19,723 nucleotides of DNA from Calditrichia bacterium (GCA_037381445.1 JARRQT010000115.1:1-19723), one strand, 5' to 3'. Positions 7,618 to 14,941 are shown, counted from the first letter of the stretch. Numbers and translations: made by a program. Notes: generated from the letters alone by a model not told the origin.

Positions 7618-8153
7618 AGATTTTTTTGAATTGATCGACCGAACTGCTTGATAAACGGATACATTTCAATACAGAAACTGGCCATTGAAAACAAATTGCC
7701 AGTCAACCGGATATTTTGCTGAATAAAATAAAATCAGTGCACATTTCTCTTATGAACAGAGAAACTGCCAGCAAGCTCCTTTTAGAGCGAATATTAAAGA
7801 ACATTTAAAATAATTGCGATAATAAGAAGAGAAATGTATATTTTTAGAAATTTTGAAAATTTTTCATTTTTAAAATTATGAAAAGCTATCGAATTTTATT
7901 GTAATTTGCAGAAAGAAGGTTGGCAAGAACTATTAATGAGTTCATAAATTGCAGTTTTATTTTGACAAGAAATTCCGGGTACCAAAGTTTTCAATAAGAC
8001 CAATTTACTCCCTTTCAAATTCTGAATGAAATAAAGGAGGCGATTTTTCGCTCATTTCTTCATCGTTAAATTTTGGGAATCCGTTAAGCGAATAAAATCG
8101 CGTCTGATTTTGATGCATTAAAAATGATACACATAAAGATCGCTGTTCAGGCT

Positions 8154-10406
8154 ATGAAAAAGTTTTTTCTCAAAAAAATTAAGATCCCCGTAGCCTCTCC
8201 GCTCAGGATCATACTTATATATATTGTATTGGGCGGAATCTGGATTTCCGTATCTGATCTGTTGTTGGAAAAATTAGCGGGCCCCATTCCCGAACTGACC
8301 ATCCTGCAGACTTTTAAGGGCTGGTTCTTTGTGATTGCCACCGCGCTTCTGCTTTATTGGCTCATCCGGAGAGGATTCTTTAAGCTCGAAAAATCTACTC
8401 GGGAACTCCGGGAAAATGAAGAACGATTAAATCTTGCCCTATATGGGACCGACCAGGCACTCTGGGACTGGGATATCAAAAAGGATAAACTTTTCTTTAA
8501 CGAAAAGTGGTCAAATATGCTGGGGTACGAGTTAAATGAGATCGATGGAAAATATAGCAGTTGGGAAAATTTGGTCCATCCCGCCGACCTCCCCAAAGTT
8601 ATGGATTTATTAAACAACCATCTTAAAGGAATTAGCGCCATCTACGAAGCACAATACCGGCTACAAACCAAATCGGGTGACTGGAAATGGATACTGGACC
8701 TGGGAAAAGTGGTCGAAAGGGATTCCACAGGAAAACCCATTCGGATGATCGGAACTCATAGGGATATTACAGCTCAGATCCAGGCGGAAAAAGCACTTCT
8801 GCAGAGCCAGAGAACTTTGTCTACCCTGATGAGCAATCTCCCGGGAATGGCATATCGCTGCCGGAATGATGAGGATTGGACTATGGAATTTGTGAGCGAG
8901 GGTTGTGTTCATCTGACCGGCTACGCCTCGCAAGATTTGATTGACAACCGAAATATTTCCTATGCCCGGTTAATTCATCCGGATGATCGACAAAGAGTCT
9001 GGGACGAAGTCCAAAAAAGTCTGGCTGCCAACCGGCCGTTTCAGTTGGTATACAGAATTGTGGCGGCCAACGATCAGACAAAATGGGTATGGGAAAAGGG
9101 AAGGCAGGTTCTGATCGATGGAAACGCACAGGGGATTTTGGAGGGATTCATCACGGACATTACCGAAAGAGTTAAGGCGCAGGAATCCCTGGCTATCCGG
9201 AATCTGCAATATGAAAACTTCATCCAAAATAATTTAGTCGGTATTTGGCGTCTGGAATTCCCGGAACCAATATCCGCAGAACTTCCTCCCCGCCAAATTG
9301 CCAGGAAAGTTCTGGAAACGGGTTATTTTACGGAAGGAAATGAAGCACTCCTGAGAATGTATCGGATATCCAACAAATCGGATTGGAGGGGAAAAGAAAT
9401 AAAGAACCTTATTATAGATTGGGATACTTCTATTGACCGCCTCGAAAATGTTATCAAAAACAATTTTAAGGCGGAAATACTTGATAATGAGGAAAAAGAT
9501 TTTGACGGAAATATTCACTATTTCCGAAACTCTTATTTTGGATATATCGAAGATGAAAAGCTGCTGTGGATGTGGGGGATTCAGCTTGACATTACTGAAC
9601 AAAAGAAACTAGAAGAGCAGTACCTGCAATCACAAAAAATGGAAGCTATCGGGAAACTGGCAGGGGGAATCGCTCACGATTTCAACAATCTGATGACGGT
9701 GGTCACCGGGTACAGCGAAGTTTTGCTGAACCAGCTAGACAACCGAGAGCAATTATTCAGCGGAATCAGCTCCATTAAGAAAGCTGGCGAAAGGGCGGCC
9801 TCGCTCACCCGCCAGTTGCTTGCATTCAGCAGGCGTCAGATCATTCAACCCAAAACCATTGACCTCAATTATATTGTCCATGATATTTATAAAATCTTAA
9901 AACGCCTCATCGGCGAAGATATCGAACTGAATCTGAATCCTGGCGAAAATCTGGACAAGGTCAGGGTGGATGCGGGTCAGATTGAGCAGGTGATTATGAA
10001 CCTGGCGGTTAATGCCAGAGACGCCATGCCAAATGGCGGGAAACTGACAATCGAAACCGAGAATGTTTACCTGGACGAGGCCTATGCCAGAAGGCACATG
10101 GAAGTTGACACAGGACAATACGTCATGCTGGCCGTCAGCGACACCGGCGTCGGGATAGATGAAAAAACCAGGGAAAGGATTTTTGAACCGTTCTTTACTA
10201 CAAAAACAAAGGACAGGGGCACAGGTTTGGGTCTGTCTACGGTCTACGGTATCATCAAACAAAGCGGCGCGCATATCTGGGTTTACAGCGAGCCCGAACA
10301 CGGGACTTCATTCAAGATTTATTTCCCGGCAATTCGGAGTGACATTCCCTCATCCGTTGAGAAAAAAGATTGGTGGTGGAAGACGAAGAAGATGTTCGGA
10401 CTTTGA
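8154..10406 (+). CDS. Membrane-anchored multi-PAS sensor histidine kinase (hybrid type; receiver separated by a frame break)
   Basis: Two TM helices (WISVSD...QTFKGWFFV), three PAS/PAC domains, H-box GGIAHDFNN, N-box NLAVNARDAM, G-boxes DTGVGI, FEPFFTTK, GTGLGLS. The tail after YFP is aberrant (KKDWWWKTKKMFGL). Start uncertain (8124 or 8154). Confidence 0.9.
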   Translation: MKKFFLKKIKIPVASPLRIILIYIVLGGIWISVSDLLLEKLAGPIPELTILQTFKGWFFVIATALLLYWLIRRGFFKLEKSTRELRENEERLNLALYGTDQALWDWDIKKDKLFFNEKWSNMLGYELNEIDGKYSSWENLVHPADLPKVMDLLNNHLKGISAIYEAQYRLQTKSGDWKWILDLGKVVERDSTGKPIRMIGTHRDITAQIQAEKALLQSQRTLSTLMSNLPGMAYRCRNDEDWTMEFVSEGCVHLTGYASQDLIDNRNISYARLIHPDDRQRVWDEVQKSLAANRPFQLVYRIVAANDQTKWVWEKGRQVLIDGNAQGILEGFITDITERVKAQESLAIRNLQYENFIQNNLVGIWRLEFPEPISAELPPRQIARKVLETGYFTEGNEALLRMYRISNKSDWRGKEIKNLIIDWDTSIDRLENVIKNNFKAEILDNEEKDFDGNIHYFRNSYFGYIEDEKLLWMWGIQLDITEQKKLEEQYLQSQKMEAIGKLAGGIAHDFNNLMTVVTGYSEVLLNQLDNREQLFSGISSIKKAGERAASLTRQLLAFSRRQIIQPKTIDLNYIVHDIYKILKRLIGEDIELNLNPGENLDKVRVDAGQIEQVIMNLAVNARDAMPNGGKLTIETENVYLDEAYARRHMEVDTGQYVMLAVSDTGVGIDEKTRERIFEPFFTTKTKDRGTGLGLSTVYGIIKQSGAHIWVYSEPEHGTSFKIYFPAIRSDIPSSVEKKDWWWKTKKMFGL

Positions 10407-10750
10407 TCCATGAAATTTTGAAATCCACCGGGTATGAGGTATTGGAGGCGGGAAGCGCTGACGAGGCAATTAATTTTTGCCGGAATCAAAACAACTCTGT
10501 TAATCTAATACTTACCGATGTAATCATGCCGAAAATGAACGGCCCGGAACTGGTTAAAAAATGTGCTGAGTTCAGAAAAGATTTGAAAATATTATACCTG
10601 TCCGGCTATACCAACAACACCATAATTAATCATGGTGTTCTGGAAACGGGCGTCGCATTTCTTCAAAAGCCGTTCACGGCGGAAAATTTATTGAATAAGG
10701 TCTGGGAGGCACTGAATTCCAGCTCCCATGACGGATGGAAAAAGAATTAA
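10370..10750 (+). CDS. Response regulator receiver domain (out-of-frame C-terminus of the upstream kinase)
   Basis: LVVEDEEDVR, LILTDVIMPKMNG (phosphoacceptor Asp), LSGY, FLQKPF. It lies in the -1 frame relative to the kinase and has no obvious RBS. Confidence 0.85.
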   Translation: MVVEDEEDVRTLIHEILKSTGYEVLEAGSADEAINFCRNQNNSVNLILTDVIMPKMNGPELVKKCAEFRKDLKILYLSGYTNNTIINHGVLETGVAFLQKPFTAENLLNKVWEALNSSSHDGWKKN

Positions 10751-10858: not shown

Positions 10859-10946
10859 GGAGAGGTGCCGGAGCGGTTGAACGGGGCGGTCTCGAAAACC
10901 GTTGACCCCCTTTGGGGGTCCCAGGGTTCGAATCCCTGCCTCTCCG
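10859..10946 (+). tRNA. tRNA-Ser(CGA)
   Basis: Acceptor stem GGAGAGG/CCTCTCC, anticodon arm GCGGT-CTCGAAA-ACCGT (CGA at 10893-10895), long variable arm GACCCC/GGGGTC, T-arm CAGGG-TTCGAAT-CCCTG, discriminator G. CCA is not encoded. Confidence 0.97.
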
Positions 10947-10965
10947 CAAGAAATAGATAATAATC

Positions 10966-11389: not shown

Positions 11390-12721
11390 ATGACTTTCCC
11401 ATCAAATTTAACCACCGATATACTGGAATCACTCAGCGAAGGAGTCTTTACAGTCGATAAAAGTTTTAGAATCAATTTTATGAACCGCGCCGCAGAAAGG
11501 ATTACCGGGTTTCCCAGGGAAGAGGTGATCGGAAAATTTTGCAAATATGTGTTCAGGGCGGAGCTGTGCTCTCACCAATGCCCCATTGCGGTGGTGCTGG
11601 AATCCGGGCGGGATTTAAGGGATTTTGAATATTCGATCTATCACAGAAACGGGAACAATCTTCATATCCGTATCAATGCCGCAGTTTTACGAAACAGAGA
11701 AAGTGAACCGGTTGGCGGAGTCATTTCTTTTCGCAATCTATCCGAATATGAAGCGATCAGAAAAAACTTGGAAAAGAGCGCCCATTTTCATGGTATCATA
11801 GGCCACGGCAAATCCATGCGCGAGATATTTGATCTGATTGAGGAAATCGCCGATACTGATGCCACGGTGTTAATTCAGGGGGATTCCGGCACTGGCAAGG
11901 AAATGATCGCCAATGCCATCCAGTCGCTGAGCACGCGGAGCGACAAACCGTTTATAAAAGTCAACTGCTCGGTCTTTACCCCTCAGCTTCTGGCCAGCGA
12001 GCTGTTCGGGCATGTAAAGGGAGCATTCACCGGGGCCATTAAAGACCGCCTGGGCCGATTTGAAATGGCACATACCGGCACTTTGTTTCTCGATGAAGTT
12101 GCGGAAACCCCGCTGGAAATGCAGATACAGTTATTGCGGGTGCTTCAGGAAGGCACTTTCGAGCGGGTGGGTGAATCCCTTAGTCGCAAAGTAGATGTGC
12201 GGGTAATCGCCGCTACTAACAAAAATCTGAGCCGGGCACTGGCAGATAGCAAATTCCGGGAAGACCTGTACTACCGACTGAATGTGATCCCCATTCATGT
12301 GCCTTCGCTGCAGGAACATCCCGAGGATATCCCCTATCTTGTGCGGCATTTTCTGCAAAAATATTCCCTTCTATATCAAAAAACGATTGACGAAATAGAA
12401 GATGGAGCACTGGAAATCCTTGTCAATCAACAGTGGAGAGGAAATGTCCGCGAGCTTGAAAACAGTATTGAATATGCATTCGCCCGCACGAAAAGCGGGT
12501 CGGTTATTCAGGCCTGCAAACTGCCCCCCACTATCCGGCACACAGTGCGCTGTCGCGATTCTCATAAGGCCGCTAATTTTGCAGACGATGAAGCCGCCCG
12601 CATATTTGATCTTCTTCAAAAATACCGCTGGAACAAATCGAAAGTGGCAAAAATTATGGGAATCGGCCGCACTACCCTGTGGAGAAAAATACGCCGCTTT
12701 GATCTGGAAATCCCGGAATGA
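11390..12721 (+). CDS. PAS-domain sigma-54-dependent transcriptional activator (bEBP, Fis-type HTH)
   Basis: N-terminal PAS; Walker A GDSGTGKE; intact GAFTGA; Walker [25 protein letters not shown]-terminal [30 protein letters not shown] at 11381-11384. Confidence 0.95.
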
Positions 12722-12731
12722 GATGTTCCAA

Positions 12732-12749
12732 CTGTTCCGCCCGGAACAG
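12732..12749. promoter_or_regulatory. Putative upstream activator sequence for the bEBP
   Basis: Perfect palindrome CTGTTCCG-CC-CGGAACAG containing TGT-N10-ACA, about 135-150 nt upstream of the -24 box. Extra TGTTCC half-sites occur at 12724 and 12833. Confidence 0.65.
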
Positions 12750-12882
12750 AATGATCCACCGGATATGAATCCATTATAAATACTGAACTTAAGATTTTCA
12801 GATCACCTCCATATCCCTCAAAAGAAACAAAATGTTCCATTTCTTGAATCCCCCCACATCCATATTCTAGGCCTTTTTTCGA

Positions 12883-12899
12883 TTGGCAGTAAAATTGTA
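12883..12899 (+). promoter_or_regulatory. Putative sigma-54 (-24/-12) promoter
   Basis: TTGGCAGTAAAATTGTA gives GG-N10-GT against the consensus TGGCAC-N5-TTGC. It is followed by a GAGG RBS (12911-12914) and the ATG at 12920, directly downstream of a bEBP gene. Confidence 0.7.
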
Positions 12900-12919: not shown

Positions 12920-13390
12920 ATGTACGAAATGCTTGGAAATCAACAATTCTTAGCACGTAACTATGATAAAGCGGCGGAATATCTTGCCAGGGCAGCAGCG
13001 AAAGATCCCGGGAATAAAGGTATCCGCCGAAAACTTATCATCTGTTACACTCAATTGGGAAAAGTTGACGATGCACTGTCCGTTTTTCTTCCACTGGTAA
13101 TGGAAGATGCGGATTTCATCATCAGAACCCATCCGGTGGATGATGACTGCCCCTGCCGGGAGATGGTTTACGATATGGAATCTCGGACCCGTTCGACGGA
13201 AAAATCAATGGGCGAACAAATCATATTAGGCATCCTATGGCTATATTGTGATCTTGAAAAATCAATCCAATATTTTGAACAGGCCCATAATACAGCCCCG
13301 GAAAATCCTGCCGTCAAAACTGTTTTAACAATTCTGTATGCCCGTTTCGAAAAGGAAAGAATGAAAAAATCCTTGAATAAGGATCACTAA
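12920..13390 (+). CDS. Small TPR-containing protein with a DDCPC motif
   Basis: 156 aa; TPR-like helices (LGNQQF..RNYDKAAEYL..A...DP; YFEQA....PEN); central HPVDDDCPC; GAGG RBS; no signal peptide. Confidence 0.8.
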   Translation: MYEMLGNQQFLARNYDKAAEYLARAAAKDPGNKGIRRKLIICYTQLGKVDDALSVFLPLVMEDADFIIRTHPVDDDCPCREMVYDMESRTRSTEKSMGEQIILGILWLYCDLEKSIQYFEQAHNTAPENPAVKTVLTILYARFEKERMKKSLNKDH

Positions 13391-13483
13391 AAAGCAAAAT
13401 CCGGAATCTGGCTGCAGATGAAAACTGAAAATTGTTGTCTTATTTCATTATCCGTGAATCACACCAAAAGAAGGGAGTTATTT

Positions 13484-14941
13484 ATGAGACATTCTTTACT
13501 AAATTTCAGGATTCTGTTATTGCTGGTCGTCTTTTCATTTGCTTTGTACGGCCAGGCGAATTTTGCCACCAGTTTACACAAGGAACGAAAGGGTAAAAAC
13601 TACTGGTATGGGGCCGATACCAGTGTAACCCATGCTCCGGCTCCCGGCTTTGAATCTCTGACCAATGTGCCAATTTCCAATCCGAATGTGGCTTGTCTAT
13701 CCTGTCATCCGGGAGACAATCTGGATGCCAATGGAGATCCCTATCCTATCCCCTATCCGGGGGCAAACTGCGTGGACTGCCACGCCACCGCGACCTCGCC
13801 ATTCCCTGGTCCCGTTACGGAGGATGATTGTTACGGATGCCATAGCCGGCAAAAGGCAGAGAAGGTAACTTTGGGATACGCTGATGTCCATCGGGACGCC
13901 AGCACCCCTCTGGAATGCTGGGATTGTCACCGGAAATCGGATTTGCACGGAGATGACGGCATCAGCTATAACTCGATGCTGGAACCGGGTGCCATTAAGG
14001 CCGATTGCGCCAATTCGGGATGTCACGACAATTTGCCTGCCGGTCACGCCGCCAACGATCCACATGGCGGTGCACTGCACTGCAGCGCCTGCCATACAAA
14101 ATCCGTCATAAGTTGTTATAACTGCCATTTCGAAAGTCAGGTGGATGCAGCACTCAAACGGGCCAAACAACAGATTCATGATTATGTGATTCTGGTTAAC
14201 AGAACTTCTGACGGGAAAGTTCATACCGCCACATTCCAGTCATTAAGCTATAAGGGCAATTCCTGGGTTGCTTTCGCCCCTTATGCGGCGCATACTATTA
14301 CGAAAACCGATGCCAGAAAATGCGCGGACTGCCACCTGAATTTCGGCGGACAGGTGGCCGCGATACAGGAATATAATACAAATCACCTGATTCAATTCGC
14401 CACCTGGAATTCCACGGACAGCACGCTGAGCTGGCTGCATGGGGTGGTGCCTATGCCTGCGGATTATCAAACGACATTCAAGATGGATTTTATCACTTAT
14501 AACGGTGATCCCTCTGATCCGGTGGCACCTTCCAAGAACTGGTCATTCCTCAAGAGTAACTGGGACGGCCATCAGATGTTTTTTGCCACGCCGCTGACCA
14601 AAGTACAGATGCAGAAACTTGGTTTCGACACCACTCTAACGGCCATCGAAAAGAATTCAGACGTGCAAATGCCCTATGATTTCGCGTTGGAGCAAAACTA
14701 TCCCAATCCCTTCAATCCCGGCACGATCATCGAATTTGAGCTGAGGCAATCGGCGACTGTGACACTTAGGGTGTATAATATCTTGGGCGAAGAAATCGTA
14801 ACGCTGATTAATAATCAGAAAATGGCAGCAGGGAAACATCAGGTGAATTTTGATGCCGGCAACTTATCCAGCGCCATCTATTTCTATCGCCTGGAAAGCG
14901 GAGGTCTTAGTCAGATCCGCAAAATGTTTCTGATGCAATAG
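13484..14941 (+). CDS. Secreted multiheme c-type cytochrome (7 CXXCH + 1 CX4CH) with a T9SS type A C-terminal sorting domain
   Basis: GGGAG RBS before the ATG at 13484; Sec signal peptide MRHS...FALYG|Q. Heme motifs: CLSCH 13694, CVDCH 13769, CYGCH 13829, CWDCH 13916, CANSGCH 14006, CSACH 14081, CYNCH 14114, CADCH 14321. The CTD runs from about 14681 (FALEQNYPNPFNP...VYNILG...SSAIYFYRL...RKMFLMQ). Confidence 0.92.
   Translation: MRHSLLNFRILLLLVVFSFALYGQANFATSLHKERKGKNYWYGADTSVTHAPAPGFESLTNVPISNPNVACLSCHPGDNLDANGDPYPIPYPGANCVDCHATATSPFPGPVTEDDCYGCHSRQKAEKVTLGYADVHRDASTPLECWDCHRKSDLHGDDGISYNSMLEPGAIKADCANSGCHDNLPAGHAANDPHGGALHCSACHTKSVISCYNCHFESQVDAALKRAKQQIHDYVILVNRTSDGKVHTATFQSLSYKGNSWVAFAPYAAHTITKTDARKCADCHLNFGGQVAAIQEYNTNHLIQFATWNSTDSTLSWLHGVVPMPADYQTTFKMDFITYNGDPSDPVAPSKNWSFLKSNWDGHQMFFATPLTKVQMQKLGFDTTLTAIEKNSDVQMPYDFALEQNYPNPFNPGTIIEFELRQSATVTLRVYNILGEEIVTLINNQKMAAGKHQVNFDAGNLSSAIYFYRLESGGLSQIRKMFLMQ

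Follow-up and report, generated by a model that had tools for sequence, protein, structure and literature searches.

The gene at positions 13484..14941 (+) of the window, i.e., the whole 19,723-nucleotide stretch of Calditrichia bacterium DNA analyzed here, encodes a 485-residue octaheme cytochrome with a type A sorting domain for the secretion system of type IX (T9SS) at its C-terminus. A distant kinship links the heme domain to octaheme tetrathionate reductase (OTR), although it is not an OTR proper, and export of the protein by T9SS is likely judging from its sequence and the gene content of the host genome. The best reading of these data is an exported OTR-like surface reductase, to which we give a probability of roughly 0.45. 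Among the three roles proposed in the initial annotation (surface reductase, shuttle or filament subunit), the reductase fits best, and nothing was found for the filament.

A GGAG-type ribosome-binding site lies directly 5' of the ATG at 13484, the position at which the homologues begin as well; an alternative start at 13418 was ruled out on both grounds. By eye, the N-terminus (MRH, a hydrophobic stretch, and ALYG followed by Q) reads as a Sec/SPI-type signal peptide (residues 1–23; 13484..13552, +). The model helix at residues 2–22 and the near invariance of Q24, the predicted mature start, among 53 aligned homologues bear out the Sec signal claimed earlier. The eight heme-binding motifs that had been noted within about 215 residues are likewise present: seven CXXCH motifs (C71, C96, C116, C145, C200, C211, and C280) and one CX4CH motif (C175-C180-H181) occupy residues 71–284 (13694..14335, +), a span of 214 residues. 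In 20,000 shuffles of the protein, CXXCH motifs number 0.02 on average and never more than two. The CX4CH motif (motif 5; 14006..14026, +) is CXXCH in many homologues, and both cysteines and the histidine are invariant at this position in 212/212 repeat units; it is a true family motif. What had been described as a heme-free spacer turned out to be folded: residues 285–385 (14336..14638, +) form a conserved, beta-rich, heme-free part of the cytochrome domain with a pLDDT above 90 in the model, and the true linker comprises about residues 386–399 (pLDDT under 50 at 388–398).

A homologue search with residues 24–390 finds 483 proteins, the close homologues being 65–71% identical "Calditrichia" proteins, by whose names the host probably belongs to Calditrichota. 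Among 120 listed homologues, 90 have eight motifs, 28 have 16, and two truncated ones have 14–15; forms with 23–24 motifs occur too. A tail-type motif is found in 115 of the 120, and some members are labeled "T9SS type A sorting domain-containing protein" by NCBI. The loci (80 kept of 127) belong mostly to Ignavibacteria, Calditrichota, KSB1, and Kryptonia, with single loci in Latescibacterota, Phycisphaerales, Planctomycetaceae, Acidobacteria, Thermoanaerobaculales, and Methylomirabilota. The carriers include Ignavibacterium and Caldithrix genome records, genera with cultured species. In a Caldithrix-labeled locus, a family copy is split over two frames (L084:5956-7403), reflecting a frameshift or sequencing error. 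A distant paralogue of the family, an 11-heme lipoprotein with about 31% identity, is encoded beside rhodanese lipoproteins within the activator-TPR cassette described below (L024:1883-3268 and L079:2-1069).

The relation to OTR emerges from structure and sequence. Foldseek with the full-length model is swamped by Ig-like tail matches, which are all it returns, and the cytochrome domain was therefore modeled alone (pLDDT 94.6, pTM 0.92). Among 48,161 representatives, 1SP3 (Shewanella OTR, SO4144) is the sole chain with a Z-score of at least 5 (Z 9.8, rmsd 4.6, 239 aligned residues), followed by OcwA (Z 4.0) and 6QVM (Z 3.6). Foldseek also ranks 1SP3 first for the domain model (E 0.008, probability 0.98), with a TM-score of only 0.42 that marks the protein as a distant variant. 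OmcS, OmcE, OmcZ, and the archaeal nanowire chains, which the initial annotation had named for comparison, are not among the matches listed by Foldseek or by the fold comparison. An HHalign comparison with 17 OTR proteins (alignment A2, itself matching 1SP3 at E 3e-192) aligns motifs 1–6 with OTR hemes II–VII (98.3%, E 1.7e-14), so that motif 1 (C71–H75; 13694..13708, +) falls on the catalytic heme II. A global HHalign of low confidence pairs motif 8 with heme VIII, and motif 7 (C211–H215; 14114..14128, +), which is invariant in 212/212 units, remains as an extra motif without a partner. The motif for OTR heme I is absent from the window protein, and identity to OTR is 15–19%. OTR Cys64 has no counterpart, as there are zero cysteines between K38 and C71; the active-site cysteine is invariant in the 17 OTRs.

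The OTR family model TIGR04315 (cut-off 375 bits) does not match the window protein, at E 0.01 either, nor any protein of the host genome at E 0.001; the relative P0133 matches it at E 1e-12. Failing TIGR04315 yet sharing the fold, the protein is an OTR relative rather than an OTR. A close match to a characterized periplasmic enzyme family, which the initial annotation had named as speaking against its reading, is thus touched in part, by a distant relation to OTR without membership by TIGR04315. A PDB sequence search with the single protein gives nothing below E 0.1, and a search with the family profile A1 yields only short NrfB-type heme stretches. PF22113 (surface cytochromes) matches 20/53 family members at E 0.001, the window protein not being one of them. 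In a sample of 61 genomes of the phylum, full OTR is present in 27 and the OTR-like family in eight, never together in one genome; this exclusion follows lineage and is not counted as evidence. Four further loci (L120, L121, L123, and L124) encode divergent OTR-like octahemes that fall short of the TIGR04315 cut-off and differ from OTR in their N-terminal active-site region; these are further uncharacterized OTR branches. In the available text of a study of a related protein, OTR is said to reduce tetrathionate, nitrite, and hydroxylamine, its heme II is described as Lys-ligated and catalytic, and the native role of the OTR family is called cryptic (10.1101/2023.04.20.537704).

More than ten additional histidines had been suggested as distal ligands of the window protein. 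The mature protein does have 14 non-motif histidines, but just five of them never vary within the close family and about six are conserved across the wide family, which comprises 121 units from 50%-identity representatives. Six conserved histidines (32, 136, 155, 188–191, 194, and 270) coincide with distal histidine positions of OTR. With about six conserved distal histidines for eight hemes, two hemes are left without a His partner. For motif 7, conservation points to K225, Q252/M, and Q364/H as candidate ligands. A further candidate axial ligand is the lysine in the segment H32...G37-K38 (13577..13597, +), whose invariant histidine corresponds to OTR His38 by register. Position 38 is Lys in 209/212 units of the close family and Lys (64), Met (46), or His (4) in 114/121 units of the wide family. 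Lys38 is found in 17/17 tailed units of the wide set and in 30/30 later repeats of the tandem forms, which therefore consist of whole repeated units. Lys, Met, and His all bind heme iron, and their interchange suggests that position 38, and with it Lys38, is probably an axial ligand. HHalign leaves Lys38 and OTR K56 unaligned, and their match is an indirect one, suggested by the register of the aligned N-terminal ends and by the G-K motif. The first aligned residues of both structure comparisons are offset by six, which places H32 on OTR H38; after subtraction of a 12-residue OTR insertion, G37-K38 would fall on G55-K56. Bridging K38 to K56 via intermediate sequences was unsuccessful, the local alignments beginning at motif 1.

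The genomic context adds a regulatory cassette. Upstream of the cytochrome gene lie a PAS-AAA-HTH sigma54 activator, whose PAS domain has a C-x8-C-x3-C motif (11390..12721, +), and, as the first gene of a predicted operon, that of a small TPR protein, which has a conserved CPC motif and lacks a signal peptide (12920..13390, +). Both genes precede the cytochrome in 40/80 loci; the three-Cys PAS motif occurs in 37/40 activators and the CPC-type motif in 48/49 TPR proteins. Two palindromes (12733..12748 and 12824..12838) are candidate activator-binding sites, and a sigma54-type promoter site, TGGCA-N6-TTGT, is located at 12884..12898 (+). The palindrome pattern occurs in 37/51 regions (0.05 in shuffled sequences). 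The sigma54 pattern occurs in 34/51 regions upstream of TPR genes (0.5 in shuffled sequences), a count that is partly fitted, as this pattern was relaxed, like the palindromes were defined, after viewing the same sequences. A strict sigma54 pattern is found in 14/40 and misses the site of the window itself. Scans for sigma70 promoters and terminators remain at shuffle level. Further 5', at 8124-10750 (+), a PAS histidine kinase and a receiver domain are read in different frames that overlap around 10370; this is apparently a hybrid kinase broken in two, either by a frameshift close to an A-run or by an assembly slip. A tRNA-Ser(CGA) (10859-10947, +) lies just 5' of the activator-TPR-cytochrome cassette, which might be an insertion beside the tRNA.

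The only other activator-TPR pair of the host genome precedes a T9SS-tailed, split-Soret-cytochrome-like gene on contig C125 (C125:6565-9772, -; locus L015). The C125 protein matches NF047622 at E 1.6e-52, below the cut-off, and has a Tat-like signal, two CXXCH motifs, and a T9SS tail; it is a possible Tat-then-T9SS cargo. Split-Soret-like genes are also found 3' of the octaheme gene in L063 and L073 and 5' of it in L076. An unrelated, T9SS-tailed octaheme of 930 residues is encoded near a [NiFe]-hydrogenase cluster and two multihemes (C50:176-2968, -; locus L016), and similar tailed proteins with eight to nine hemes adjoin the family gene in L020, L032, L037, and L044. Directly upstream of the family gene, 7/80 loci have genes for a 14-heme protein, a lipoprotein multiheme, and a probable porin, the last read by eye with no family over its cut-off. 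Homologues of this porin-cytochrome cluster are present in the host genome (C151 and C334), in which the MtrB/PioB porin family has no match. Two candidate porin-cytochrome or outer-surface multiheme clusters are located at C39:8660-14865 and C334:3839-6337, the former having genes for 11, 4, and 5 hemes together with a possible beta-barrel and the latter an 11- and 16-heme pair. Rhodanese lipoproteins flank 2/80 loci; in at least four Kryptonia loci, genes for DsrE2 and for TmcC-like and DsrK-like proteins lie ahead of the octaheme gene.

Does the exported domain catalyze or merely conduct? A close rival to the surface reductase is a non-catalytic electron conduit, likewise exported by T9SS and either surface-bound or released, which would pass electrons to or from minerals, humics, electrodes, or partner cells with a six-coordinate His/Lys or His/Met heme 1. 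It would explain the interchange of Lys, Met, and His at position 38. His/Met ligation suits an electron-transfer heme, and an unrooted FastTree phylogeny of the 121 units, in which the tailed copies cluster but do not form one clade, has Lys and Met changing several times; such recurrent Lys-to-Met swaps are as compatible with six-coordinate ligation of an electron-transfer heme as with a catalytic heme. Moreover, the 16- and 24-heme tandem forms lengthen the chain, a porin-cytochrome-type cluster adjoins 7/80 loci, OTR Cys64 is absent, and two surface cytochromes, OcwA (Z 4.0) and 6QVM (Z 3.6), match the fold weakly. The missing Cys64, the distance of the fold match, the indirect assignment of K38 to K56 by register, and the confinement of sulfur-related neighbors to few loci count against the reductase. 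A precedent is MmcA, which the available text describes as an OTR-family protein turned conduit (10.1101/2023.04.20.537704). However, MmcA no longer has the second heme motif or the Lys, whereas the family studied here has retained the matching motif and probably the Lys as well. The tandem forms repeat whole units and retain Lys38 in every later repeat, and the residues R122, R226, and Y42, which never vary within the close family, would be suitable for a substrate pocket. We regard the conduit as possible but on the unlikely side and retain the surface reductase as the preferred reading.

Both of these readings require export. The C-terminal sorting domain (14681..14938, +) is above the cut-offs of PF18962 (39.7 bits, cut-off 27) and TIGR04183 (36.7 bits, cut-off 23) over residues 406–481, as the initial annotation had proposed, and its model has the fold of the C-terminal domains of mirolase 8QB1 (Z 10.2), NucA 8GLK (Z 9.2), and PorU 6ZA2 (range for the three 9.2–10.7). 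The host genome (5.1 Mb, 401 contigs, 91.85% complete) encodes SprA, 24 PorV-family matches above the cut-off, and a PorU above the cut-off with a GHG...ATC stretch, which we take to be the C25 His-Cys dyad. PF18962 has 130 matches among the 150 of 158 candidates that were scored. CcmA/B/C/E/F-like genes are located on contig C44 (C and F by PF01578, the others by eye), and the genome has a CcsA-type gene in addition to this cluster. Only three of the 22 open reading frames with at least two CXXCH motifs are T9SS-tailed, namely, the window octaheme, the octaheme on C50, and the split-Soret-like protein on C125. The gene content called for by the earlier export claim was thus partly found: SprA, PorV, PorU, and Ccm are there and the tail co-occurs with SprA (see below), but GldKLMN was not detected. 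GldK, GldL, GldM, and GldN have no match over the cut-off in the 91.85% complete host genome, where a divergent chain could escape detection. BLAST and phmmer with GldL, GldM, and GldN from three Bacteroidota loci likewise give no match in the host genome, and GldK gives weak matches only. GldM is found in 0/50 host genomes of the family with a model that is positive in 15/61 Bacteroidota genomes; GldL is found in 0/61 genomes of the phylum with no positive in its control, GldM alone having a positive control. Two marginal matches to PF11751 (PorP/SprF), one of them on a PorV-family gene, were set aside. In Bacteroidota, the energy chain is required to eject the substrate-PorV complex from the translocon, according to the available part of PMC12635249. 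The missing GldKLMN is therefore the main objection to export, which we call likely only. The combination of SprA, PorU, and many PorV paralogues without detectable GldK/L/M/N in the host, the 61 phylum genomes, and the 50 family host genomes may represent a motor-less type IX system.

In line with this objection, the protein could instead be an OTR-like enzyme of the periplasm or tethered to the outer membrane, with a tail that does not lead to full export in lineages without the Gld/Por energy chain. OTR proper is treated as a periplasmic enzyme in the available text of a survey (PMC11492766). Untailed and lipoprotein-like relatives are common: in the wide family, 17/121 units are T9SS-tailed and 104/121 untailed, 57 of the units being lipobox-like by a crude pattern. 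SprA is present in 45 of 50 host genomes tested (from the 80), with 44/44 tailed copies in SprA genomes and 5/5 complete untailed copies in genomes without an SprA match; the remaining copy, truncated at the end of its contig, lies in an SprA genome. The hosts are kin and non-independent, so that this co-occurrence is a pattern and not a statistic, and an untailed Met variant (L122) in the SprA-bearing genome G047 is a counter-example. This variant and the mostly untailed distant relatives suggest that the domain is probably able to function in the periplasm or bound to a membrane. Other sorting tags above their cut-offs (18 scanned) are JDVT-CTERM in one protein and GC-dockerin in one, and 74% of an archaeal cluster of structural neighbors (TM 0.62) carry PGF-CTERM. 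This repeated joining of the domain to envelope-sorting signals favors a surface role. Furthermore, the retention of SprA, PorU, 24 genes of the PorV family, and some 130 matches to the tail would be hard to explain if nothing were exported, tail and SprA co-occur, and a divergent motor can escape profile searches. A periplasmic or tethered enzyme appears improbable. A polymerized filament (nanowire) subunit whose assembly is triggered by tail removal, for which the tandem repeats of the domain and the C-terminal part of OmcZ, reportedly cleaved before assembly, could be cited, is very improbable: OTR, which matches the fold best, is a globular enzyme, and much of the fold is free of heme. Export in some form, the filament case included, appears probable to us.

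For the surface reductase, we propose the following sequence of events from the genes and motifs. On a redox cue, the PAS-sigma54 activator would turn on the TPR-cytochrome operon. The cytochrome would be exported by Sec and receive its hemes from Ccm in the periplasm, and the tail would then carry the folded holo-protein through SprA onto PorV, where PorU may cut the tail and thereby anchor or release the cytochrome. Electrons would arrive from a porin-cytochrome conduit and travel along about six bis-His hemes to the end heme (motif 1, the equivalent of OTR heme II with Lys38 as ligand), which might reduce an external acceptor; this last step is the weakest. The most plausible acceptor would be a sulfur or nitrogen oxyanion, e.g., polythionate, nitrite, or hydroxylamine. 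More broadly, we tentatively suggest that a type IX system lacking the Gld/Por motor might bring several unrelated holo-cytochrome families to the cell surface in Calditrichota, Ignavibacteria, KSB1, and Kryptonia. These would be the OTR-like octaheme with its forms of 8, 16, and 24 hemes, another octaheme family, and the split-Soret-like protein; a dedicated sigma54 redox cassette would control at least two of them, and porin-cytochrome conduits would supply them all.

To our knowledge, T9SS is not among the characterized routes for extracellular multihemes, which are T2SS, porin complexes, and wall or S-layer anchoring. Full-text searches for T9SS with multiheme cytochromes, in this spelling, or with Calditrichota found no paper, and broader searches by title and the start of the abstract found no description of a cytochrome as T9SS cargo. 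A term look-up in the available text of two T9SS reviews (PMC11205867; PMC10202324) does not find the word "cytochrome". The OTR-like octaheme family is undescribed in the available parts of PMC5317091, PMC6137239, PMC11492766, PMC8840924, PMC10376724, and PMC7914226, and the available part of PMC5492636 is a weak test for its mention. PMC5317091, in the same part, mentions a canonical Otr of Caldithrix abyssi. Genome papers or supplements may mention the family. The family has no profile of its own, so that marker-gene screens would miss it. If export holds true, it would be an overlooked surface redox protein in lineages common in sediments, aquifers, and hot springs. The OTR family gains an uncharacterized branch, and the question arises how SprA-PorV-PorU works without detectable GldKLMN; should the motor-less reading be correct, it would imply a new route of extracellular respiration and a type IX system energized in an unknown way.

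Compared with known systems, the window protein is closest to OTR. Six consecutive motifs align with hemes II–VII and the last motif, at low confidence, with heme VIII, six distal histidines match, and a Lys probably lies beside the heme II equivalent. In contrast to OTR, it lacks heme I and Cys64 and has motif 7 and a T9SS tail, and Lys is replaced by Met in 46/121 units of the wide family. It shares with MmcA, the heptaheme of Methanosarcina acetivorans, an OTR-derived scaffold, which MmcA, as far as its available description goes, reuses for electron transfer including to extracellular acceptors. The same description sets MmcA apart by the loss of heme II and its Lys and by its place in an Rnf operon, whereas in the window protein the heme II-equivalent motif is retained and invariant, and a sorting tail is present. 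OcwA (6I5B), the S-layer cytochrome of Carboxydothermus (6QVM), and MtrC/OmcA are multiheme redox proteins placed at the surface, as is likely for the window protein; the first two share a fold similarity with it that is too weak for membership. OcwA and 6QVM are anchored to the Gram-positive wall or S-layer and MtrC/OmcA exported by T2SS, none of them by T9SS. While its host is apparently outside Bacteroidota and has no detectable GldKLMN chain, the window protein resembles the type A T9SS cargo proteins (mirolase 8QB1, NucA 8GLK, and PorU 6ZA2) in its signal peptide, its Ig-like C-terminal sorting domain, and a host equipped with SprA, PorV, and PorU.
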